Source: Candidatus Parcubacteria bacterium (GTDB lineage Bacteria > Patescibacteriota > Minisyncoccia > Sungbacterales > SURF-37). From it: a stretch of 64,000 nucleotides of DNA. The translations under genes were made by a program, and so were the position numbers. The notes below the pieces were generated by a model. That model was not told the DNA's origin, did not search any database, and was given only the letters and a program-made list of their open reading frames with translations. Location of the stretch: contig QZJO01000013.1 in the NCBI GenBank assembly GCA_003599755.1, positions 27,729-91,728 of the forward strand. The letters run 5' to 3'. Below are positions 2,174 to 53,118 of this stretch, one piece after another (position 1 is the first letter of the stretch; the number at the start of each line of letters is the position of its first letter).

Positions 2174-3505
<1,332 letters not shown>

Positions 3506-3520
3506 CCGACGTCCATCCCT

Positions 3521-4792
3521 ATGTTCAAGAAGGTAGCGCTCCCCAACGGTTTACGGATCCTGACCGCACCGATGCAGGGCACCAATACGGTGACCACATT
3601 TGTCATGTGCGGGACCGGCTCGGACCACGAGACCGAACCGCAAAGCGGCATATCGCATTTTTTAGAGCACATGTTTTTCAAAGGCACGACGAAGCGGCCG
3701 AACCACTTGGCGATCACCAAGGAGCTCGACCGCATGGGCTCGGCCTCGAACGCCTTTACGTGGCACGAAACTACGGGATACTACGTGAAGGCCGGCGCCA
3801 TCCATTTTGACCGGGCGATTGATCTTCTGGCCGACATCTACCGGAATTCCCGATTTCCCGAAGAAGAGATGGAAAAGGAAAAGCGGGTGATCATCGAGGA
3901 GCTGCATATGCGGCGGGAAATCCCCACGAGCTATATCTGGCGCCTGTGGGAAAAGACGTTGTACGGCGATTCGCCGGCCGGCCGCGAAGTCGGCGGCACC
4001 GAAGAAACGGTGCAGGCGATTCGGCGTGAGGACTTGGTTAAATACTTCGAAAGTCAGTACGTCGCGCCCAATACCGCAGTCGTAGTTGCGGGCAAAATCG
4101 ACGAGGACGCGGCCGTGCGGCGCGTGGCGGAATTATTCTCCGATATTCGCGCCGGCGCGCCGCATCCGGCGCCCGCGTTTGTGCCGCGGCAGGCCGCACC
4201 CATTCTCATGCCCGAGGCGCGGACGATCGACCAAACGCACACGGTCATCGGTTTCCGGGGGTATGACGCGTTCCATCCGCGGCGCTGGGCCGCCGAGATG
4301 CTCGCGATCGTGCTCGGAGGATCGTGGAGCTCGCGGATGTTCGTGCGCGTGCGCGAGGAGCTCGGGCTCGCGTACACGGTATCGTCGTCGAGTTCGAACT
4401 ATAAGAACCGCGGCTCGTTCGAGACATATGCGGGCGTGAGCCATCACAATCTCGCCAAGGCCATCGAGGCGATCCTGGCCGAATACCGCCGCGTTCGCGA
4501 AGAGCCGATCGCGGCCGAAGAGCTTGCCGATGCACGCGAATTCCTCAAAGGCCGGATGCTTATGGAATGGGAGACCTCCGAGGCGGTCGCGGATCATGCC
4601 GCGGGCGAAGAAATGCTGACCGGCGATCCGTTGACCATCGAGGAAGTATTTGCGAGGATCGATGCAATCAAGCCGGCGGATCTGGCCGACGTTGCCCGAG
4701 ACCTCTTCCGGCCCGACCGCCTCAATGTCGCGATTTTGGGTCCCGAACCGACGTTCGGGGATCCGCAAGCCCTCATCAACCGATTCGCCTGA
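3521..4792 (+). CDS. M16-family zinc peptidase (insulinase-like; HxxEH motif HFLEH)
   Basis: GISHFLEHMFFKGT... is the inverted zinc-binding motif of M16 peptidases. 423 aa. Confidence 0.8.
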   Translation: MFKKVALPNGLRILTAPMQGTNTVTTFVMCGTGSDHETEPQSGISHFLEHMFFKGTTKRPNHLAITKELDRMGSASNAFTWHETTGYYVKAGAIHFDRAIDLLADIYRNSRFPEEEMEKEKRVIIEELHMRREIPTSYIWRLWEKTLYGDSPAGREVGGTEETVQAIRREDLVKYFESQYVAPNTAVVVAGKIDEDAAVRRVAELFSDIRAGAPHPAPAFVPRQAAPILMPEARTIDQTHTVIGFRGYDAFHPRRWAAEMLAIVLGGSWSSRMFVRVREELGLAYTVSSSSSNYKNRGSFETYAGVSHHNLAKAIEAILAEYRRVREEPIAAEELADAREFLKGRMLMEWETSEAVADHAAGEEMLTGDPLTIEEVFARIDAIKPADLADVARDLFRPDRLNVAILGPEPTFGDPQALINRFA

Positions 4793-15690: not shown

Positions 15691-16961
15691 ATCTTGTTCC
15701 CGTTCCGGTACAGCCGCATGCGCGTTCGATACTCCGGCGATATCGGACGCTCAATCCGGGTTTATTTCGCCGTCTTCGCCGGGCGGGCGGGCGACTCACG
15801 GGGACTGCCGTATTGCATATCAGCGCCACGCCGCGCGGTGGCGGCGTGGCCGAAATACTCCAAAGCGAGGTTGCGCTCGAGCAGGGACTCGGCATGGACA
15901 GCCGGTGGTTGGTTATCCGCGCGCCGCGGAAATTTTTTGCCATCACGAAAAAAATTCATAACCTTCTGCAGGGAGCAGCGGGAAAGCTTACCGAGCAGGA
16001 AAAAGGATATTATCTTGCCGCAAACCGGGAGTTTGTCGCGGCGTTTGCTCGAGCCGCGCGCGGCGTTGAACGCGCGGTGGTGGTCGTGCATGATCCCCAG
16101 CCGCTTGCGATGATCGGCGGATTGCCGGCAGAAATTTCGACCGTACTGCGCCTGCATATTGATTTGGCGACGCCCGATCCCGCGACGCTCGAATTTTTCC
16201 GGCCGATGATCGACCGATACGACCGCGTCATCGTGAGCGAACGAGCGTACTTGGTTTCATTGCCGTGGCTGCGGCGCGCGAAAGCGCGCGTGATATTTCC
16301 TGCGATCGACCCGTTGTCCGAGAAGAACCGACCGATGTCCCGCCGTGCGGCCGAGCGTCTGCTGTTGGAATTCGGTATTGATTGTTCGCGGCCGCTCGTT
16401 ACGCAGGTCTCACGATTCGATCCTTGGAAAGACCCCATCGGTGTCGTTCAGGCGTACTATCGTGCAAAAAACGATATTCCGGATTTGCAATTGGCGCTTG
16501 CCGGCTTGCGTGTCGCGGTCGACGATCCGGAGGCAGAGGCCGTATTCCGGAAAGTGCGCAAGTTCGCGCGCGGCGATTCGGCAATTCATTTATTCGGGGA
16601 TCACGAGCAGCTCAAAACCGTTTCTGGTGACCGATTCGTCAGCGCGCTCTATACGGCAAGCGATGTCGTTATCCAAAAAAGCATTCGCGAAGGGTTTGGC
16701 CTGACGGTGGCCGAAGCACTGTGGAAAGGGAAGCCGGTCGTTGCCGGTATGACCATCGGCACCAAAGCGCAGATCCAAAATGGTAAAAACGGCCTGCTCG
16801 TCGCTTCGCCCGAGGAGGCGGCCTCAGCGATCATCAAACTTATGCGCGATCGCCGGCTTGCCGCGCGCCTCGGCGCGGCCGGCAAAAAATCCGTGCAGCA
16901 GCGGTTTTTGCTGCCGCGTCTCGCGCTCGATATGGCCAACGTCTTTGGAGAGTTGGTGTAG
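15687..16961 (+). CDS. GT4-family glycosyltransferase (trehalose-synthase/TreT-like, RFDPWKDPIGV motif)
   Basis: Start ATG 15687 overlaps the PAP2 stop (ATGA). SRFDPWKDP... and a C-terminal GT-B fold signature EGFGLTVAEALWKGKPVVA. Confidence 0.7.
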   Translation: MNLVPVPVQPHARSILRRYRTLNPGLFRRLRRAGGRLTGTAVLHISATPRGGGVAEILQSEVALEQGLGMDSRWLVIRAPRKFFAITKKIHNLLQGAAGKLTEQEKGYYLAANREFVAAFARAARGVERAVVVVHDPQPLAMIGGLPAEISTVLRLHIDLATPDPATLEFFRPMIDRYDRVIVSERAYLVSLPWLRRAKARVIFPAIDPLSEKNRPMSRRAAERLLLEFGIDCSRPLVTQVSRFDPWKDPIGVVQAYYRAKNDIPDLQLALAGLRVAVDDPEAEAVFRKVRKFARGDSAIHLFGDHEQLKTVSGDRFVSALYTASDVVIQKSIREGFGLTVAEALWKGKPVVAGMTIGTKAQIQNGKNGLLVASPEEAASAIIKLMRDRRLAARLGAAGKKSVQQRFLLPRLALDMANVFGELV

Positions 16962-16976
16962 CGATATTCGAAACTG

Positions 16977-17696
16977 CTACTGACGTAAGGCGAATGGGTT
17001 AAAGTTTGTTCCCTCGTCGTAGGTATCAAGACCTTCCTTACGCTTGATAATCTTAATTACTCTTTGGGTGATCGGGAGGACAATTATTTCCCAGGTTGTG
17101 GCGAAGACAACGGTTGTAATTGTAAGGGGGATAATCTCTTCTGCAGTAAACCAGCCAGCGAAATAAAAAGCGGTAAAGAATGCAATGGTATTGTCCACTG
17201 TTTGTCCAAAAAGTGTGGATAGGACGAGGCGCACACCTATAAATCTTCCTTGCGTCCAAAGCTTCATTTTTGCGACGACATAGGAGTTTGTTAGTTCTCC
17301 GGCAAAAAATGCAACAATAAATCCTAGAGCAATGATTGGTGCGGCCCGGAAGATTAGATTAAATGCCTCGTTGTACTCGAAACTAGGATTGGGTACAAAA
17401 CTATAAATTGAAGTAAGTGTTGCCGAAAGGAGCATACAGGCAAAGCCGGTCCACACGATTTTTCTAGTAACTCGGTAGCCGTACACTTCGGTAAAAATGT
17501 CGGCAAAGATATATACGAATGGATATGCTATTGCTCCCACGGAAAAAACGAGGCTGCCAATGTAAAAGGTTTTAAGTGAAGTAAAGGTGCCGACAAGCAA
17601 AACCGTGACCCATAACATTCCAAAAACTCCTAGCCATTTGTGTGGTTGTGCCGCCGAAACAGCTGGGTCTGTGATGAGTTGTTTTTCTTGCTTCAT
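16977..17696 (-). CDS. Queuosine-precursor (YhhQ/DUF165, VUT family) transporter-like membrane protein; conspicuously low-GC gene
   Basis: 239-aa polytopic membrane protein (…YPFVYIFADIFTEVYGYR…LFGQTVDNTIAF…) typical of YhhQ. By eye the region is about 40-45% GC, against over 60% for its neighbours. Confidence 0.65.
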   Translation of the reverse strand: MKQEKQLITDPAVSAAQPHKWLGVFGMLWVTVLLVGTFTSLKTFYIGSLVFSVGAIAYPFVYIFADIFTEVYGYRVTRKIVWTGFACMLLSATLTSIYSFVPNPSFEYNEAFNLIFRAAPIIALGFIVAFFAGELTNSYVVAKMKLWTQGRFIGVRLVLSTLFGQTVDNTIAFFTAFYFAGWFTAEEIIPLTITTVVFATTWEIIVLPITQRVIKIIKRKEGLDTYDEGTNFNPFALRQ

Positions 17697-17767
17697 ATGG
17701 GTAAGAAATTTCTTCCCAAAATGCAGGCCGCCAATTCATTTTATCCAAACTCGTTGATTTTTCTACT

Positions 17768-17826
17768 TGGTGCCGAGGGATGGAGTTGAACCCTCACGCC
17801 CTTGCGAGCAACGGATTTTGAGTCCG
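17768..17826 (-). pseudogene. tRNA-Leu(CAA)-like 3' fragment (anticodon arm through CCA); no 5' acceptor strand or D-arm
   Basis: Minus-strand sequence ACGGA-CTCAAAA-TCCGT (anticodon CAA), a long variable arm, GAGGG-TTCAACT-CCATC T-arm (one G.A mismatch), acceptor 3' strand CCTCGGC and an encoded CCA. Only 23 nt lie between it and the intact tRNA, too few for a D-arm and 5' acceptor, and no GCCGAGG partner is present. Confidence 0.5.
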
Positions 17827-17850
17827 TTGTGCCCCGAACTAAATTTTCTG

Positions 17851-17934
17851 TGCCGCGGGAGAGAGTCGAACTCTCATGAGGTTGCCCTCGCTGGATTTTG
17901 AGTCCAGTGCGTCTGCCAGTTCCGCCACCGCGGC
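17851..17934 (-). tRNA. tRNA-Leu (anticodon CAA), type II with long variable arm, 84 nt, CCA not encoded
   Basis: Hand fold: acceptor GCCGCGG/CCGCGGC (perfect), D-arm GCGG-AACTGGCAG-ACGC, anticodon arm CTGGA-CTCAAAA-TCCAG, variable arm CGAGGGCAACCTCATG, T-arm GAGAG-TTCGACT-CTCTC, discriminator A. Confidence 0.8.
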
Positions 17935-20010: not shown

Positions 20011-20772
20011 ATGGCAACCGTCATCGCATTCTGTAATCAAAAAGGAGGTACGGGAAAGACCACGACGGCCGTGAATGTCGCAAGCTATCTTGTGGCGCTC
20101 GGCAAGCGGGTGCTTGTCGTGGATATCGATCCCCAGGCAAACGCGACTTCGGGCATCGGCGTGCAGGCGGGCGAGCGGCATCTGTACCATGGCCTCGTGC
20201 GGGATGCGCATCCGGATGAATTGATCCGCCATTCCGGCCTGATGAATCTCCATGTGTTGCCGGGGCATCCGGACTTGGCCGCCGCGACCGTGGAGCTCGT
20301 ACCGATGGAGAACCGCGAATACCGGCTGCGCGATCTCTTGCGCCGCGTCGGCCGCCGCTACGATTTTATTCTCATCGATCCGCCGCCGACGCTCGATCTT
20401 CTGACCATCAACGCGTTGACGGCGGCCGATCAGGTGATCATCCCGGTACAGTGCGAGTACTACGCGCTCGAGGGGCTGGCGCGCCTGATGCATACGATCA
20501 ATCTTGTCAATCAGAATTTGAAAATGAAAGTGCGGACCATGGGCGCATTGCTGACGATGTTTGATCGCACAAGCCGGCTGCACCGCGCGGTCGCGCGGGA
20601 CGTGCGCAAAAAGTTTCCCGGCTATGTATTTGATGCCGTTATCCCGAGGAACGTTAGCTTGGCCGAGGCGCCGAGCTTCGGCAAAACGATCCTCCAGTAC
20701 GATCCCTATTCGCACGGCGCGAAGGCCTACCGAAAATTGGCGCAGGAAATTGTTAAGATCGAAAAAGAATGA
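20011..20772 (+). CDS. parA: Chromosome-partitioning ATPase ParA/Soj
   Basis: MATVIAFCNQKGGTGKTTTAVNVASYLV (deviant Walker A). Start at ATG 20011. A TGgTACAAT extended -10 lies only 4 nt upstream, so the mRNA is possibly leaderless. Confidence 0.85.
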   Translation: MATVIAFCNQKGGTGKTTTAVNVASYLVALGKRVLVVDIDPQANATSGIGVQAGERHLYHGLVRDAHPDELIRHSGLMNLHVLPGHPDLAAATVELVPMENREYRLRDLLRRVGRRYDFILIDPPPTLDLLTINALTAADQVIIPVQCEYYALEGLARLMHTINLVNQNLKMKVRTMGALLTMFDRTSRLHRAVARDVRKKFPGYVFDAVIPRNVSLAEAPSFGKTILQYDPYSHGAKAYRKLAQEIVKIEKE

Positions 20773-21230
20773 AGCGCATTGCCATTATTTTTATAGTCGT
20801 CGCTGTAATTTTTGGCTTATTTCTTTACAGTAGGCGCGAAAAGGAAGTTTCCGGGCGCGTTGTTGCGTGCGAAACCGGAGAGCCGATTGCTGGAGCTACA
20901 GTTTCAGCGCATCAGCACGGATGGGGGCTCTCGAATGGCATGCCCGTCTGGGATAAAGAATATACGACAACTGCGGTAAGCAGTTCTGATGGTTCATTTT
21001 CGCTTGCTTGGCGGGTCGGTAATGCGGCGCAATTGCGGGCTAAGCATGATAACTATATCGTTGCTGAATGGTGGGCAAAAGATACGGAAACGGTTTCTTT
21101 GCCATTGCGCCCCGGAACCGATCCGTTCCCATTGGCGGTAACATATAATTGCAAACTCGTTTCTGAATGCATGGTATGTGAAATGATAAACGGTGTTGAA
21201 ACGTGTCATAATTCGTGTCTGCCTCAATGA
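20769..21230 (+). CDS. Small low-GC membrane-anchored protein with a carboxypeptidase-regulatory-like beta domain and a Cys-rich C-terminus; inserted between parA and parB
   Basis: N-terminal TM (IAIIFIVVAVIFGLFLY), a GRVVACETGEPIAGATVSA motif (CarbopepD_reg-like) and a C-terminal CKLVSECMVCEMINGVETCHNSC. About 47% GC by eye. Start overlaps the parA stop (ATGA) and the end overlaps the parB start. Confidence 0.5.
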   Translation: MKRIAIIFIVVAVIFGLFLYSRREKEVSGRVVACETGEPIAGATVSAHQHGWGLSNGMPVWDKEYTTTAVSSSDGSFSLAWRVGNAAQLRAKHDNYIVAEWWAKDTETVSLPLRPGTDPFPLAVTYNCKLVSECMVCEMINGVETCHNSCLPQ

Positions 21231-22327
21231 CCAACCCTCTCGGCAAAGGACTTGAATCGCTCATTCCGGGCAAGGCCACGCCGCCTCCGGAACCGGAGCC
21301 GTTGGACGTGCTACACGGCCAAAAAGAGCTCGACGAGCCGATGCATCGGTTCCACGACGGCGGTCCGATGCGCCAAGCTGCATCCGCGCCCGGATCGACG
21401 GGTACTGCAGCGCCGGTGAACGCGGCCGCTTCCACGCCCTTGCCGCCGCGAACGATCCAAGTCGATACGCCGGGTCGGATGATGTTTTCGGCGCAGCCCA
21501 TCCGTGGGGATAGTATTTTCTGGATTGAGATCACCAAGATCGAGCCGAATCCCTTTCAGCCGCGCCGCGTGTTCGACGCGGGCGAGTTGACCGCGCTTGC
21601 GCAATCCATCCGCGATCATGGCGTGCTGCAGCCGCTGTTGGTAACGAAGGTTACCAAGGATACGCCCAGCGGCGTGGACGTGCGCTATCAGTTGATCGCC
21701 GGCGAACGGCGCTGGCGCGCATCCAAGCTCGCGGGTTTGCGCACGGTGCCGGTGATCGTACGCGGAACCGATACGTCCGATCAGGCCAAGCTCGAGTTGG
21801 CGCTCATCGAAAACGTCCAGCGCGAGGACCTGAACGCGATCGAGCGGGCCAAGGCCTTCCAGCAATTGATCGATGAATTCCGCCTCGGGCACCAGGATAT
21901 CGCCAAGCGCATCGGCAAAAGCCGGGAGATGGTGACCAATACGCTCCGCCTTTTGCGCCTCCCTAAAGAAATGCAGGATGCGATTTCGGGGGGCGTAATC
22001 ACCGAAGGCCATGCCCGCGCGCTCTTGATGCTGGATCCGGAACCGGATAAGCAGCAGCAGTTATTCCGCGAAATGCAGCAAGGTCCGATGTCCGTGCGCG
22101 CGGCCGAGCTTGCGGCGCGGGCCTTGGGCGGCGCCAAAGTGCAAAAACGGAGCAAGCTGAAAAACACGCCCGTGGATCCGGATCTCCAGTCGCTGCGCGA
22201 GCGACTTGAAGAGCTGTTTGGAACCAAGGTATCGCTGATCCGGCGCGGCGAGCGCGGCCGGATCATCGTGGAATTTTATTCGGATGAAGAGTTGCAGGGG
22301 ATTATGGGACGGATCGTGAAGGAATAG
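21215..22327 (+). CDS. parB: Chromosome-partitioning protein ParB/Spo0J with a long Pro/Ala-rich N-terminal extension
   Basis: ParB box EIEPNPFQPRRVFD...LQPLLV...YQLIAGERRWRASKLAGLRTVPVIVR, and HTH region NTLRLLRLPKEMQDAI. The alternative start at 21227 is equally possible. Confidence 0.85.
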   Translation: MSASMTNPLGKGLESLIPGKATPPPEPEPLDVLHGQKELDEPMHRFHDGGPMRQAASAPGSTGTAAPVNAAASTPLPPRTIQVDTPGRMMFSAQPIRGDSIFWIEITKIEPNPFQPRRVFDAGELTALAQSIRDHGVLQPLLVTKVTKDTPSGVDVRYQLIAGERRWRASKLAGLRTVPVIVRGTDTSDQAKLELALIENVQREDLNAIERAKAFQQLIDEFRLGHQDIAKRIGKSREMVTNTLRLLRLPKEMQDAISGGVITEGHARALLMLDPEPDKQQQLFREMQQGPMSVRAAELAARALGGAKVQKRSKLKNTPVDPDLQSLRERLEELFGTKVSLIRRGERGRIIVEFYSDEELQGIMGRIVKE

Positions 22328-46452: not shown

Positions 46453-47094
46453 ATGGAAAATGCAATTTCGTTTCTCTTCCCATTGGCAGTGCTGGTATTC
46501 TCCGTGGTGCTCCATGAGGTGTCTCACGGGTATGTCGCCAATGCGCTCGGGGATCCGACCGCCAAGTACGCCGGACGCTTGACGCTGAATCCGATCCCGC
46601 ACATCGATCCGGTAGGCTCCATTCTCGTGCCGTTGGCGTCCTGGTTTTTAGGAGGATTTGTCATCGGCTGGGCAAGGCCCGTGCCGTATGATCCGCGCAA
46701 TATCCGCCTCCGCAATACGGAGTTCGGCGCCGCGCTCATCGGGGCGGCGGGACCGGGCGTTAATATCGCGATCGCGTTGATATTCGGCCTCGTGATTCGG
46801 TTCACGGACTTGTGGCAAAACGCGGTTGGCGCGGCGGCATCGCCCATGCTTGAAATATTCGTGACTATTACGATCGTCAATCTATTCCTCGCGATATTCA
46901 ACCTTATACCGATTCCGCCGCTCGATGGATCAAAGGTTCTGTTCTGGCTATTGCCGGGCGAATGGTGGCAGCTCCGCCAGGCCTTAGAGCAATACGGGTT
47001 TTTCATTCTTCTCTTCTTTATATTTGCCCTATCCAATTGGATCGTGCCGATAGTGCGCGCCATTTTTGGCGCTATTACCGGCATCCCGCTCTGA
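46453..47094 (+). CDS. M50-family (site-2 protease-like) membrane metalloprotease
   Basis: HEVSHG (HExxH) within a TM helix, a second-site LDG motif (IPPLDGSKVL), multiple TM segments. Confidence 0.75.
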   Translation: MENAISFLFPLAVLVFSVVLHEVSHGYVANALGDPTAKYAGRLTLNPIPHIDPVGSILVPLASWFLGGFVIGWARPVPYDPRNIRLRNTEFGAALIGAAGPGVNIAIALIFGLVIRFTDLWQNAVGAAASPMLEIFVTITIVNLFLAIFNLIPIPPLDGSKVLFWLLPGEWWQLRQALEQYGFFILLFFIFALSNWIVPIVRAIFGAITGIPL

Positions 47095-47100
47095 GCTGCG

Positions 47101-47129
47101 TTGACAGCCCCTGCCCTCCTCCGTATACT
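47101..47129 (+). promoter_or_regulatory. Near-consensus sigma70 promoter of the str operon (TTGACA-N17-TATACT)
   Basis: TTGACA at 47101..47106, 17-nt spacer, TATACT at 47124..47129. About 180-nt leader before rpsL. Confidence 0.55.
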
Positions 47130-47308: not shown

Positions 47309-47722
47309 ATGCCGACGATTCATCAACTTCTAAAACACGGGCGTGGCCGCAAGCGCGCCAAGTCCAAAGCCCCCGCCCTGGGGCGTGGTTTTAATACGAT
47401 CTACAACCGGCCGGTACAATACGCGTCGCCGTTCAAGCGCGGCGTGTGCGTTAAGGTTTCGACCATGACCCCGAAAAAGCCCAACTCCGCGCTCCGCAAG
47501 GTAGCGCGCGTGCGGCTGACCAACGGCATGGAGGTTACTGCCTATATCCCTGGCGAGAAGCATAATCTTCAGGAGCACTCGGTCGTGATTATCCGCGGCG
47601 GCCGCGTCAAAGACCTTCCGGGCGTGCGCTATCATATCGTGCGCGGCGTGTTGGACACCGGCGGCGTGGAAGGCCGGCGGCAGCAGCGCTCGAAGTACGG
47701 CGCCAAGCGACCGAAGTCATAA
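47309..47722 (+). CDS. rpsL: 30S ribosomal protein S12 (with a short internal insertion)
   Basis: [24 protein letters not shown]…[28 protein letters not shown]…. Confidence 0.9.
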
Positions 47723-47725
47723 CCT

Positions 47726-48193
47726 ATGCGCCGCAAACGCAATTTCGAACGCGATATCGCACCCGACCCGCGCTATGACAGCGTGTTGATCGCCAAGCTT
47801 GTTAATTCAGTCATGCAGAAAGGGAAAAAGTCCGTGGCGGAGTCGGTGATCTATGACGCGTTTGATCTGATCGCGAAAGAGACCGGCGAAGATCCATTGA
47901 TCGTATTCCAACGCGCGATGCAAAACGCGTCGCCGTTGCTGGAGATCAAGTCGCGGCGCATTGGCGGCGCGAACTACCAGGTGCCGCGCGAGGTGAATCC
48001 GAAGCGCCGCGTGGCGCTGGCATTGCGCTGGCTGATCGGCGCAGCGCGCGCCAAAACGGGCAAGCCCATGGCCGCGCGATTGGCCGAAGAAATCATGCTC
48101 GCGGCCAAAAACGAAGGCGCGGCGATCAAGCGCAAAGCCGATATGCATCGGATGGCAGAAGCCAACAAAGCATTTGCGCATTTTGCGTGGTAA
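47726..48193 (+). CDS. rpsG: 30S ribosomal protein S7
   Basis: MRRKRNFERDIAPDPRYDSVLIAKLVNSVMQKGKKSVAE…. Confidence 0.9.
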   Translation: MRRKRNFERDIAPDPRYDSVLIAKLVNSVMQKGKKSVAESVIYDAFDLIAKETGEDPLIVFQRAMQNASPLLEIKSRRIGGANYQVPREVNPKRRVALALRWLIGAARAKTGKPMAARLAEEIMLAAKNEGAAIKRKADMHRMAEANKAFAHFAW

Positions 48194-48202
48194 CTCTTCA
48201 GA

Positions 48203-48529
48203 ATGGATCTTGGGATTCGCTCGAAACATAAGATTAGGCTTGGGCTTATTATAAGTTCGCTGGTATTTGGTTTTTTATTTACCGCCTTCGCGGGAATCGT
48301 GCTGTATGCATACACACTTACTAGTGTGTTTTCCGGCGGAGAACTTATGTGCTACGGATTTTTTAGTGATGGAAGTCCATGCTCATATGTAGATATCGTA
48401 GTGCGAGGTGCAGGATTTCTCCTGGGTGGCTTCCGCGATGCGGAGTCATGGATCATACCTTTGGTTTCTGCTGGCATTTTCTATATCGCGGTAGATAATA
48501 TTTCCCGTCTGAAAGCACGCGCCGTATAG
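48203..48529 (+). CDS. Small low-GC membrane protein (108 aa, 2-3 TM) inserted between rpsG and fusA
   Basis: Exactly fills the rpsG-fusA spacer (ends 1 nt before the fusA ATG). About 45% GC by eye, against over 60% in flanking genes. TM segments [25 protein letters not shown] and [14 protein letters not shown]. Confidence 0.45.
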
Positions 48530-48530
48530 C

Positions 48531-50648
48531 ATGGCACGAGAATATCCACTCGAAAGAACAAGAAACATCGGGATCATCGCCCATATCGACGCCGGAAAAA
48601 CCACGGTTTCCGAGCGCATTTTGTTTTACACCGGGGTCTCGCACAAAATCGGCGAGGTGCACGAGGGCGACACGGTCATGGACTGGATGGAGCAGGAGCG
48701 GGAGCGGGGCATCACCATTACCGCGGCCGCGACCAATGCATTCTGGAAGCCGTCGTATCTTGCCGAAGCGCAGAAGACCAAAGACAACGAATACCGGATC
48801 AATCTCATCGATACCCCGGGCCACATCGATTTTACCGTCGAGGTGAAGCGCTCGCTCCGGGTGCTGGACGGCGCGGTCGTCGTGTTCGACGGCGTAGCCG
48901 GCGTCGAACCGCAATCCGAAACCAACTGGCGCTACGCGGATGATTACCGCGTGCCGCGCATCTGTTTCATCAATAAGCTCGATCGCACCGGCGCGTCGTT
49001 CGAAAAATCACTCGCTTCTATTTACGAACGGCTGACGCCCAACGCCGTGGCGCTCTCCATTCCGATCGGATCGGAAGCGGATTTCGAGGGCGTGATCGAT
49101 CTTCTGAACGAGCAAGCGGTCCGGTTCCTCGGCGAACGGGGCGAGCGGATCGAGCGAGGGCCGATTCCCGACGCATTGAAAGAAACCGCGGCCGAGTGGC
49201 GGGCCAAGATGGTGGAAAAGATTTCGGAGACCGACGACGCGCTGACCGAAAAATTCCTGAATGCCGAGGCGATCACGCCGGCTGAACTGAAGGTGGCGCT
49301 GCGCCAAGCGACTCTCGCGGCCAAGCTCGTGCCGGTGCTTGCCGGCTCGGCTTTGAAAAACAAAGGCGTGCAGCTCGTACTCGACGCGGTCGTGGATTAT
49401 CTGCCCTCGCCGCTCGACCTGCCGCCGGTCAAAGGCGTCAATCCCAAAACCGGCGCCGAAGAAGAGCGCGCGGCCAAGGATGACGCGCCGTTTGCGGCGC
49501 TTGCGTTCAAGCTGCAATCCGATCCGTTCGTCGGGCAGCTGACGTTCTTTCGCGTGTATTCGGGTACGCTCGCAGCCGGTTCGTACGTATTGAACACCAC
49601 GAAGGGTGAACAAGAGCGCGTGGGTCGGATTTTGCGATTGCACGCGAACCATCGCGAAGAATTGAAAGAGATCCAGGCCGGCAATATCGGCGCGATCGTT
49701 GGCCTCAAGATCACGCGTACCGGCGATACGCTGGCTGACCCCGACCATCCGATCGTGCTCGAACAGATCCAATTTCCCGAGCCGGTGGTGTCGCTGCGCA
49801 TCGAACCGAAAACCAAGGCCGACCAGGAAAAAATGGGCATCGCGTTGCGCCGATTGTCCGAAGAGGACCCGACGTTCCGCATCAAGGGCGATGTCGAGAC
49901 GGGCGAGACGATCATCTCGGGCATGGGCGAGCTGCACCTCGAGATCATCGTGGACCGGATGCGCCGGGAATTTTCCGTGGAAGCGAACGCCGGCCGCCCG
50001 CAGGTCGCGTACAAAGAAACCGTTAAAAAGGCGGCCGAAGCCGAAGGCAAGTACATCCGCCAGACCGGCGGCCGGGGACAATACGGCCATGTGCGGCTCC
50101 GCGTGACCCCGCAGGAACGAGGCAAGGGCTTTGAATTCGTCAATGAAATCAAGGGTGGCGTGATTCCTCAGGAATTCATCCCAGCCGTGGAAAAAGGCGT
50201 GCGCGAGGCGACTGATCGCGGGGTGCTCGCCGGCTATCCGGTCGTGGACTTGCAGGTGGCGCTCTACGACGGTTCATTCCATGACGTGGACTCGTCTGAA
50301 GCCGCGTTCAAAATCGCGGGTTCCATGGCATTCCAGGAAGGCGCACGCCGCGCGGGACTCGTACTCTTGGAGCCGATTATGCGCGTCGAAGTAGTCACGC
50401 CCGAGCAATTCCTCGGCGACGTGACCGGGGATCTGAACGCCAAGCGCGCGCGGATCCAGGCGATGAACGAGCGCGCGATGGGCGTCAAAGTCATCGAGGC
50501 CCAGGTGCCGCTTGCCGAGATGTTCGGCTACGCGACCACGCTTCGTTCGTTGACGCAGGGTCGGGCGTCATTTACGATGGAGTTCAGCCATTATGAGGAG
50601 GTCCCGTCGAACATCGCACAGACGATTGTCGCGGGGCGCACCGGGTAG
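48531..50648 (+). CDS. fusA: Elongation factor G
   Basis: [25 protein letters not shown]…DTPGHIDF…NKLDR. 705 aa. Confidence 0.95.
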
Positions 50649-50656
50649 TTCAGCAT

Positions 50657-50950
50657 ATGTTGGATGACCTCACCTCACTCATTCGCAACGGCGAGCGCTA
50701 CATCATCGTCGAAGGCGGCAAGCCGCGCTACGTGCTTTTGAGTTTCGATGATTATCGCGCGCTCGTGGGCGGTGCCGGCAACTCGACTGCGTCCGCACCC
50801 GCGGTCCGCGCGGACCTCGATCTGGCGAATGCCGAGCTCCAGGCGGCTCGTCAGCGTCCGAGCGCCGACATCCCGCCCGAGGCCTTGCCCATGGCCGTCG
50901 CGGCAGCGCCCGATCCCCTGAGCATCCGGCTCGAGGATCTGCCGCTTTAG
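50657..50950 (+). CDS. Small protein with a Phd/YefM-antitoxin-like N-terminal region and an Ala/Pro-rich tail (97 aa)
   Basis: ERYIIVEGGKPRYVLLSFDDYRAL resembles the Phd/YefM beta-strand/helix core. Sits between fusA and tuf with no toxin partner. Confidence 0.3.
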   Translation: MLDDLTSLIRNGERYIIVEGGKPRYVLLSFDDYRALVGGAGNSTASAPAVRADLDLANAELQAARQRPSADIPPEALPMAVAAAPDPLSIRLEDLPL

Positions 50951-51087: not shown

Positions 51088-52281
51088 ATGGCAGGGAAGT
51101 TTGAACGATTGAAGCCGCACCTGAACGTCGGCACCATCGGTCACGTGGACCACGGCAAGACGACGCTGACTGCGGCCATCACCAAGTCGCTGAATCTCGC
51201 GGGATTCCAGTCCCGGGTGGAATCGGTCGACCAGATCGACAACGCGCCCGAGGAAAAGGCGCGCGGCATTACCATCGCGCTCCATCACTCGGAGTACGAG
51301 ACCGACAAGCGCCACTACGCGCACATCGACGCGCCGGGCCACGCCGACTACATCAAGAACATGATTACGGGTGCCGCTCAGATGGACGGCGCGATCCTCG
51401 TCGTATCGGCAGTGGACGGCCCGATGCCCCAGACCCGCGAACATATCCTGCTCGCGCGCCAGGTCGGCGTACCGGCTATCGTGGTTTTCTTGAACAAAGT
51501 GGACATGGTGCAGGAAAAAGAGCTTGTGGATTTGGTGGAAGCCGAAGTTCGTGAGTTGCTCAAGAAATATGAATTTCCGGGCGATACGACGCCGGTTATT
51601 CGCGGCTCGGCCTTGAAGGCGCTCGAAGCGACTTCGAAGGACGATCCGGCGGTGCAGCCGATTCTTGAATTGGCAAAAGCGCTCGATGAATTCGTGCCCG
51701 ATCCGGTGCGCGACGTCGAAAAGCCGTTTTTGATGCCGGTCGAGGACGTGTTCTCGATCGAAGGCCGCGGCACCGTGGTGACCGGCCGTATCGAACGCGG
51801 CAAAGTCAAGCTTAATGACGAAATCGAAATCATCGGCTTGAAAGACACCGCGAAGACGACGATTACCGGCATCGAGATGTTCAACAAGTCCCTGGACGAA
51901 GGCATGGCCGGCGACAATGCGGGCATCCTGCTCCGCGGTCTTAAGAAAGAAGACGTCGAGCGTGGCCAAGTGCTCGCCAAGCCCGGCTCTGTGACGCCGC
52001 ACACCGAATTCGAATCCGAGGTCTATATTCTGACCAAGGAGGAAGGCGGCCGCCACACGCCGTTTTTCGCCGGGTACAAGCCCCAATTTTACATCCGCAC
52101 CACGGACGTAACGGGCGAAGTGACCCTGCCGGCCGGAACCGAGATGGTCATGCCGGGCGATACGATTACCTTCCAAGTGAAGCTCATCCAGCCGGTCGCA
52201 CTGGAAGAGAAGCAGCGATTCGCAATCCGCGAGGGCGGCAAGACCGTCGGCGCGGGCGTCGTGACCAAAATCAACAAGTAA
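51088..52281 (+). CDS. tuf: Elongation factor Tu
   Basis: [20 protein letters not shown]…DAPGHADY…NKVD. 397 aa. Confidence 0.95.
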
Positions 52282-52693: not shown

Positions 52694-53005
52694 GGTTTTG
52701 CCTGCCGAGGCGGAGCCGAGAGGCCCTAAAATCTTCATCCGCCGAAGCTTTGCCGGCAGGCAGGTTCAGCGGAGGCGAATTGCCAAAATGCATTCCTGCC
52801 CTTTTCTCCCAGTGCGAAGCAGTGGAGGAAAAGGGGAGTGATGCAACCGGCTCACTCCGCCCGTTGTCCCTTCGACTCGCTCCGTTCGCTCAGGGTAAGC
52901 ACCTGCAGCGCGCAAGCAGAAAGAAGGTGGGCGCCTTATTTGCAAGGCATAATCGTGATTGATTTCGTGCACCGGTAGGCACTGCGGCCAAGCGCGTATC
53001 CCAAG

Positions 53006-53028
53006 GCGGGCGTTGCCCGTTTTTTCTT
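53006..53028 (+). terminator. Terminator/attenuator-like hairpin CGGGC-GTT-GCCCG + TTTTTTCTTG inside the unusually long rpsJ-rplC spacer
   Basis: 5-bp GC stem with a 3-nt loop followed by six T's, about 90 nt upstream of rplC. The 425-bp spacer is otherwise noncoding. Confidence 0.35.
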
Positions 53029-53118
53029 GTCTTCATGCGCCGGCCAGCTCGCCATACCGCTCTTCCCCGGCCTCTGCATTTCTGCTACGAATGGCCGGTG
53101 GCCTGATCGATTCCATCC

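Follow-up and report, generated by a model that had tools for sequence, protein, structure and literature searches.

The str operon of a Candidatus Parcubacteria bacterium carries, between the genes for ribosomal protein S7 (rpsG) and elongation factor EF-G (fusA), a 337-bp segment of low GC content that is absent from all relatives found and that is filled by a single open reading frame of 108 codons (ORF108). We credit about as much as we doubt the reading that this segment is a lineage-specific insertion at a junction where pieces of DNA are swapped, and that ORF108 is co-transcribed with the str operon, translated by a relay of ribosomes and encodes a small membrane protein.

Position of ORF108 in the str operon

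The sequence analysed here is a contiguous stretch of 64,000 nucleotides (the window). Its gene order in the region of interest is M50 peptidase (46453-47094, upstream of rpsL), rpsL, rpsG, ORF108, fusA, an ORF of 97 aa, tuf and rpsJ, followed by further ribosomal genes. The rpsG gene (47726..48193, + strand) was identified by a match to Pfam Ribosomal_S7 (PF00177, 205.9 bits) and fusA (48531..50648, + strand) by the EF-G domains of Pfam, while rpsL (ribosomal protein S12, 47309..47722, + strand) and tuf (EF-Tu, 51088..52281, + strand) were identified from their translations and from Pfam matches of the syntenic genes of relatives, S12 in the case of rpsL. The EF-G encoded in the window is nearest to that of Candidatus Sungbacteria.

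Inspection of the ORF list and of the raw sequence indicated that ORF108 (48203..48529, + strand) begins with an ATG located 9 nt past the rpsG stop codon (TAA, 48191-48193; the raw sequence reads TAA-ctcttcaga-ATG), that it shares the reading frame of rpsG, and that its TAG stop lies 1 nt before the fusA ATG (TAG-c-ATG). The low-GC segment between the two flanking genes thus measures 337 nt (48194..48530, + strand, GC 0.454). A previous reading of this DNA from sequence only (the sequence-only reading) had described an ORF of 108 codons occupying the spacer between rpsG and fusA, with its end 1 nt ahead of the fusA ATG; the coordinates given there are correct, and the low-GC string quoted there was found at 48235-48284. 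GenBank already holds an identical protein, annotated as 'hypothetical protein' of Candidatus Parcubacteria bacterium under the locus tag C4552_04890.

Base composition and low-GC islands

The window has an overall GC content of 60%. Windowed analysis (200 nt) over positions 48200-48500 showed a drop to about 0.415-0.46 against a level of ~0.60, which bears out the earlier statement that the region is conspicuously AT-rich relative to the ribosomal genes. The GC content of ORF108 is 0.453, with 0.51, 0.43 and 0.40 at the first, second and third codon positions (GC3 0.404), while GC3 ranges from 0.71 to 0.77 in rpsL, rpsG, fusA, tuf, parA, parB, glmS and topA. The contrast with the neighbouring genes (0.40 versus 0.72-0.77) is of the kind expected of a horizontally acquired islet. 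As a possible trace of a recombination tract extending into the flanking genes, codons 1-30 of fusA have a GC3 of 0.53, the minimum of 824 windows; low-GC3 gene starts are common, however, and that of rpsL has 0.60. No uncovered segment of the window has a lower GC content than the 337-nt segment; the short intergenic spacers have values of 0.48-0.59, all of them higher, and for this reason the segment does not pass for plain native non-coding DNA.

Only three islands with a GC content below 0.47 are present in the 64 kb, at 16901-17850, 20951-21250 and 48101-48550, and they have in common a GC3 of about 0.40-0.44, which is consistent with acquisition from donors of lower GC content. At the first island, a gene for a queuosine-precursor transporter of 239 aa (16977-17696, - strand, GC 0.43, GC3 0.43) lies beside tRNA-Leu (17850-17934). 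This protein belongs to the YhhQ/Vut_1 family, with matches to TIGR00697 (90.6 bits) and Pfam Vut_1 (127 bits) that are both above the curated cut-offs, and the gene looks like a horizontally acquired salvage gene placed next to a tRNA gene. At the second island, an ORF of 153 aa located between parA and parB (20769-21230, GC 0.48, GC3 0.44) overlaps its neighbours on both sides, the parA stop through an ATGA and parB at its called start; its product shows an N-terminal hydrophobic signal-anchor and a weak, sub-threshold CarboxypepD_reg-like match, and its situation resembles that of ORF108. The sequence-only reading had joined the three cases in a pattern of small, low-GC membrane-protein genes parasitising highly expressed conserved operons. 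The common low GC3 agrees with this grouping, but the tRNA-Leu case is a transporter of 239 aa that is neither small nor inside an operon, and the word 'parasitising' is an over-reading. A description as small ORFs of foreign composition wedged in tight junctions of core genes fits two of the three islands.

A further tRNA call in the window, a 90-nt tRNA-Val(TAC) placed by ARAGORN at 1397-1486, falls inside a long host-like ORF (81-2162); the Rfam tRNA model gave no match there at the gathering threshold, and the call is probably a false positive.

The rpsG-fusA junction in relatives

Eleven relatives, whose EF-G proteins are 80-87% identical to that of the window, were located through the closest EF-G proteins. 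All share the order M50 peptidase-rpsL-rpsG-X-fusA-Phd-like ORF (~95-101 aa)-tuf-rpsJ, in which X is variable. ORF108 is absent from this position in all eleven, where either other content or none was found, and comparisons of the 337-nt segment with all relative loci by tblastn, blastn and tblastx gave no similarity. Since ORF108 is missing from every relative found while the flanking synteny is the same, it is to be regarded as an insertion and not as an old member of the operon, as the sequence-only reading had proposed. ORF108 is therefore a lineage-specific passenger at a variable junction and is not a str operon member conserved in the clade. By the criteria of the sequence-only reading itself, this absence leaves the choice between a recent insertion and a spurious frame.

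The content of the junction differed widely among the relatives. In locus L090 (EF-G 82%) rpsG and fusA are separated by a gap of 5 nt, in L092 (81%) by 151 nt without an ORF, and in L001 and L002 (80%) by 99-117 nt with a GC content of 20-30%. Loci L085-L087 (86%) contain 700 nt with an ORF of 71 aa and a RelE/HigB/YafQ-like ORF of 90 aa, these family matches being sub-threshold; the pair lies between perfect 21-nt direct repeats, TCGCGCATTTTGCGTGGTAAA, which correspond to the rpsG 3' end, and is followed by an AT-rich spacer of ~95 nt. The 687 nt of L082-L084 and L089 (85%) carry an acidic orphan ORF of 113 aa and then a duplicate of fusA codons 1-24, which is 84% identical over 50 nt; the frame of this copy closes at an ATGA shared with the true fusA start. 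The junction of L094 (80%) is occupied by two ORFs for soluble products (136 and 174 aa). In L095 (80%, a complete genome of 923 kb) the 370 nt comprise a second rpsG end and an ORF of 94 aa that stops 11 nt before fusA; the second rpsG end (~39 nt) encodes AEANKAFAHFAW followed by the stop, and most of its differences from the first copy are synonymous. An orphan three-helix membrane ORF of 98 aa, with its stop 89 nt before fusA, was found in L091 (80%), and an uncalled two-helix ORF of 98 aa in L093 (86%), which starts 2 nt past the rpsG stop and ends 35 nt inside fusA.

The duplicated fusA 5' end of this group (3843-4004 in L082, likewise in L089) is split by an element of ~95 nt. This element is bounded by terminal inverted repeats (GTCCCGATT...AATCGGGAC), contains a hairpin and resembles a miniature transposable element.

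The intervals of the relatives showed no likeness, at the DNA or the protein level, to the segment of the window or to each other, and no recombinase gene was found in any of their inserts. Homology of ORF108 to the junction ORFs of L091, L093 and L095 was considered and rejected (BLASTP E=0.98-24; Smith-Waterman z of -1.0 to 2.0 against shuffles); pairwise comparisons among ORF108 and the ORFs of L093 and L091 gave z values from -1.0 to 0.0. The GC3 of the inserts was lower than that of their hosts in L082 (0.37 versus 0.52), L085 (0.47 versus 0.79) and L093 (0.52 versus 0.79), the exception being the ORF of L091, whose GC3 is near that of the host (0.545 versus 0.564).

The ORF located between fusA and tuf (97 aa, 50657..50950, + strand) is Phd/YefM-like, with a score of 21.8 bits against a cut-off of 29.8. 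All seven clade members examined carry it, its C-terminal RLEDL motif is invariant, and its GC3 of 0.78 is host-like; no toxin partner was found for it. It is apparently an old, clade-specific member of the str operon, and ORF108, being unlike this conserved ORF of host-like GC3, does not look like one.

Further downstream, a gap of ~400-425 nt between rpsJ and rplC was observed across the clade (window 52694-53118, L082 8296-8700, L091 4756-5121). It contains a conserved block with a small hairpin (CGCCTTATTTGCAAGGCAT) and, after it, a terminator-like hairpin that is conserved as well (GGCGGGCGTTGCCCGTTTTTT), has no Rfam match at the gathering threshold, and may be a leader, an attenuator or a small RNA between S10 and L3.

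Variability of the junction across Patescibacteria

A wider set of 80 genome loci was recovered with S7, and the gap was counted where fusA lay downstream. Gaps of more than 250 nt between rpsG and fusA were present in 14 of 44 Patescibacteria loci and in none of the 29 loci of other bacteria (Fisher p=4.5e-4), in which the gap was 169 nt or less in every case. The 14 large gaps of Patescibacteria measure 260-3394 nt and are occupied by unrelated genes, and at least three further Patescibacteria loci had no fusA within 4 kb. The premise of an inviolate rpsG-fusA pair, on which the sequence-only reading had relied, does not hold for this phylum: about one third of its loci have an interrupted junction, and the content differs in nearly every close relative. 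ORF108 thus represents one case at a variable site and not a singular breach. No account of str operon interruptions in Patescibacteria was found in the literature.

The rpsG 3' end (encoding ...AHFAW and the stop) is duplicated downstream in three lineages, where the copies bracket the inserted DNA. These are located at 3281-3301 and 3885-3905 in L085, at 4455-4471 and 4619-4635 in the distant locus L072, where the repeat is of 17 nt, and at ~2592-2630 and ~2713-2751 in L095. In L095 the differences between the copies are mainly synonymous, as though one copy derived from another genome. The duplications suggest that recombination anchored on the conserved rpsG end may have been recurrent.

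Such scars were confined to L085, L072, L095 and L082. The window showed no notable direct or inverted repeats, no second rpsG 3' or fusA 5' end and no integrase, and the protein cluster, phmmer, metagenome, viral, phage and plasmid searches revealed no donor of the 337-nt segment.

Homology searches and predicted product of ORF108

ORF108 is an orphan without known relatives. Among ~15 billion proteins only the identical GenBank entry was retrieved, and an indexed search of 5.8 billion protein clusters likewise returned just the identical sequence. An exhaustive phmmer search of 1.84 billion representatives gave, beyond the query, three long repeat proteins, which were rejected as homologues because their scores add up many weak matches. 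A tblastn match in metagenomes (L081) was rejected as a coincidence over 31 residues of a TM helix within a protein of 525 aa. No match to ORF108 was found in viral contigs (pattern and tblastn scan), in phages and plasmids (tblastn), in PHROGs and PADLOC, in Pfam (0 families at E<=1) or among PDB sequences (E<=10), and the only NCBIfam match was TIGR03647 at E=0.069, with 13.4 bits against a cut-off of 26.

Hydropathy analysis predicted a strong hydrophobic helix at codons 13-37 (48239..48313, + strand), either a first TM helix or the h-region of a signal-anchor, with a KD19 peak of 2.37 over residues ~13-37, and a weaker one at codons 82-98 (48446..48496, + strand), within a hydrophobic stretch at residues 81-100 (KD17 >= 1.5) and followed by the basic tail RLKARAV. 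The N-terminus is basic (R6, K8, K10, R12), the middle stretch is moderately hydrophobic only, and the loop between the hydrophobic helices contains two cysteines. The net charges of +3 at the N-terminal and +2 at the C-terminal end would fit the positive-inside rule. The product is thus predicted to be an integral membrane protein, having one or more hydrophobic helices long enough to span the membrane and charges placed according to the positive-inside rule, and the arrangement suggests a hairpin topology with both ends inside (N-in/C-in). An AF2 model of the single sequence placed helices at residues 3-42, 62-74 and 81-107 with low confidence (pLDDT 61). The two or three TM helices claimed previously are therefore plausible, but hydropathy and this low-confidence model make a clear-cut case for one only. 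T-rich sequence readily gives rise to hydrophobic peptides, and the hydropathy peak of ORF108 was equalled in 4.8% of shuffles, which indicates that its hydrophobicity is partly compositional.

Transcription, translation and the proposed relay

A consensus scan upstream of rpsL gave as its best match a sigma-70-like promoter (TTGACA-17-TATACT, 11/12) at 47101..47129 (+ strand), which is likely the promoter of the str operon and would also drive ORF108. No terminator-like site was found between rpsG and fusA. A weak promoter-like match (9/12) upstream of fusA, at 48471..48499 (+ strand), lies within the 3' end of ORF108 and may be due to chance. Only 6 of 45 confidently framed genes of the window had an SD-like motif in the 20 nt ahead of the start, a heuristic count in which some starts are perhaps mis-set, and no such motif was found upstream of fusA; translation initiation in this organism seems to be largely SD-independent. 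In E. coli, the translation of fusA is coupled to that of rpsG (PMC10931766).

The course of events that we propose begins with a small piece of DNA of lower GC content, which would have entered a junction prone to recombination in this Sungbacteria-related Parcubacteria lineage, where the junction would repeatedly gain and shed such pieces. An insert without its own promoter and terminator would then be carried on the str operon mRNA. Given the spacings of 9 nt and 1 nt, re-initiation of ribosomes at ORF108 and then at fusA is possible: ribosomes ending S7 would re-initiate on the ORF108 start 9 nt downstream, and those ending ORF108 on the fusA start 1 nt downstream, a translational relay that would keep fusA coupled to rpsG in spite of the insertion. 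Translation of ORF108 would yield a small membrane protein with a basic N-terminus, a TM helix at ~13-37, a two-cysteine loop, a helix at ~82-98 and a basic C-terminus. The 5-nt gap of L090 and the ATGA junction of L082 show that, without an AT-rich leader, tight coupling is the local norm. The relay is not obligatory, since most of those relatives that have AT-rich spacers of 90-150 nt evidently start fusA independently.

The same spacings admit a different explanation, which we regard as rather unlikely, namely that the segment is junk or de novo DNA whose frame is open only to bring ribosomes to fusA, its amino-acid sequence being free of constraint and its likeness to a membrane protein a side effect of the abundance of T. 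That ORF108 fills the spacer to the nucleotide would be expected of such DNA, as would the T frequency of 0.40 at its second codon positions and the rpsG-fusA coupling known from E. coli. The window, L093 and L091 each have at this site a hydrophobic ORF of ~98-108 aa, the three being mutually dissimilar, and those junction ORFs checked for homologues were all orphans. A precedent for a membrane by-product is offered by yeast, in which Vakirlis and co-workers reportedly observed TM peptides emerging de novo from thymine-rich sequence. However, the GC content of the segment is below that of native intergenic DNA of the window (0.454 versus 0.48-0.59) and at the same time well in excess of that of relatives, whose native spacers have 0.2-0.3, and these spacers, from relatives of at most 87% EF-G identity, provide no alignable non-coding counterpart or ancestor of the segment. 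Moreover, the frame of L093 alone is not significant, a spacer-filling ORF being obtained in 198 of 3000 shuffles, and the stop of the L091 ORF, 89 nt before fusA, argues that a relay is not general.

A broader version, in which the junction acts in Sungbacteria-related Parcubacteria as a cradle for new small proteins, appears quite unlikely to us. According to it, unrelated orphan membrane ORFs of ~100 aa (window, L093, L091) would repeatedly arise or land between rpsG and fusA, be expressed immediately by way of the str operon transcript and be kept open as relays between both genes, while recombination would be anchored on the conserved 3' end of rpsG and 5' end of fusA. A role of these ends as anchors is suggested by their duplication in L085, L072, L095 and L082.

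Coding signal of the segment

The chance occurrence of such a frame was assessed with dinucleotide shuffles of the 337-nt spacer, scoring + strand ORFs that start within 15 nt after the rpsG stop and remain open to fusA. A spacer-filling ORF was obtained in 34 of 10000 shuffles (0.34%), and in 1 of 5000 with a stricter definition of spacer filling, while an open run of at least 108 codons in any of the six frames occurred in 2.5% of shuffles. As only ~0.3% of shuffles reproduce such an ORF, a chance origin of the spacer-filling frame is disfavoured and ORF108 is unlikely to have arisen by chance. The composition of its codon positions (G 0.35 at position 1, T 0.40 at position 2, and GC1 > GC2 > GC3) fits the coding frame of a hydrophobic protein. 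Codon-usage likelihoods, with models derived from two other low-GC genes or from host genes, gave antisense frames scores equal to or better than that of ORF108. Support for a translated gene is indirect, coming from the shuffles and the codon-position pattern, and the gene of the sequence-only reading is better called a putative one.

These results bear on the proposal that the 337 bp are a non-coding spacer, inserted or expanded and perhaps acting as a fusA leader or internal promoter, and that its frame is open by coincidence. High-GC genomes often contain long ORFs by chance; ORF108 has no homologues, its codon likelihood ratio is ~0, the promoter-like site of 48471-48499 lies ahead of fusA, and relatives have non-coding spacers of 99-370 nt, all of which is in line with a spurious frame. 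Against it stand the rarity of spacer-filling frames among the shuffles, the G-rich first and T-rich second codon positions with GC falling from the first to the third, and the protein-like layout of basic, hydrophobic and basic parts. Evidence of an RNA element was also negative: the lenient Rfam scan gave no match to the 337-nt segment at E<=1 and its folding is ordinary (MFE z = -1.23, 13 of 100 shuffles folding as well), on which grounds a structured RNA was rejected. We consider a spurious ORF improbable.

That ORF108 and the 98-aa ORFs of L093 and L091 are orthologues from the clade ancestor, diverged past recognition, is very improbable, for although the three agree in location, in length (98-108 aa) and in overall layout, and the products of the window and L093 both resemble N-in/C-in two-helix hairpins with basic ends, they show no similarity in protein or DNA while the neighbouring Phd-like protein, at equal divergence, retains 51-57% identity in three of six aligned relatives and 26-39% in the other three, the intervening lineages are ORF-less (L090, L092) or carry quite different cargo (L082, L085, L094), and a GC3 below that of the host in every insert except the L091 ORF argues against long residence.

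Significance and comparison with known systems

Taken alone, ORF108 is another unannotatable orphan of a candidate phylum, already deposited as a hypothetical protein. Its context is more useful: a junction treated as near-universal, rpsG-fusA, is fluid in Patescibacteria, with cargo that shifts between close relatives. This fluidity bears on synteny-based annotation and binning checks in these phyla, and on how reduced genomes still gain novelty. If the relay of the preferred reading is true, translational coupling could shelter new reading frames and expose them to selection.

The insertion of ORF108 is comparable to the islets of ORFans and 'hypothetical proteins' found at core-gene hot spots, with which it shares low GC content, absence from close relatives and cargo that varies among lineages. 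It differs from them in that its site is inside an operon of the translation machinery and not between operons, and in that the islet consists of a single ORF in 337 bp, in a window without detectable integrase, repeats or donor. Insertions, site-specific or facilitated by homology, that duplicate the conserved ends of genes, such as the 3' ends of tRNA or ribosomal protein genes, are matched by the signature of L085, L072, L095 and L082 but not by that of the window.

Accessory genes of ribosomal operons, such as secY, adk and map in the spc operon or the Phd-like ORF described above, are co-transcribed passengers with tight intercistronic spacing, and the similar spacing of ORF108 suggests that it too may be coupled; such genes, however, are conserved in their clades and have host-like composition, while ORF108 occurs in one genome and is compositionally foreign. 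The product of ORF108 is small and hydrophobic, as are type I toxins and similar toxic peptides, but with 108 aa it is longer than type I toxins usually are, and neither evidence of an antisense RNA or a promoter nor a family match was found.

The de novo membrane proto-genes of yeast (Vakirlis et al. 2020, PMC7005711) are resembled by ORF108 in being orphan, short, T-rich, TM-prone and located in a transcribed context. The yeast work deals with intergenic DNA, whereas ORF108 has no alignable non-coding ancestor and a composition unlike that of the native spacers.
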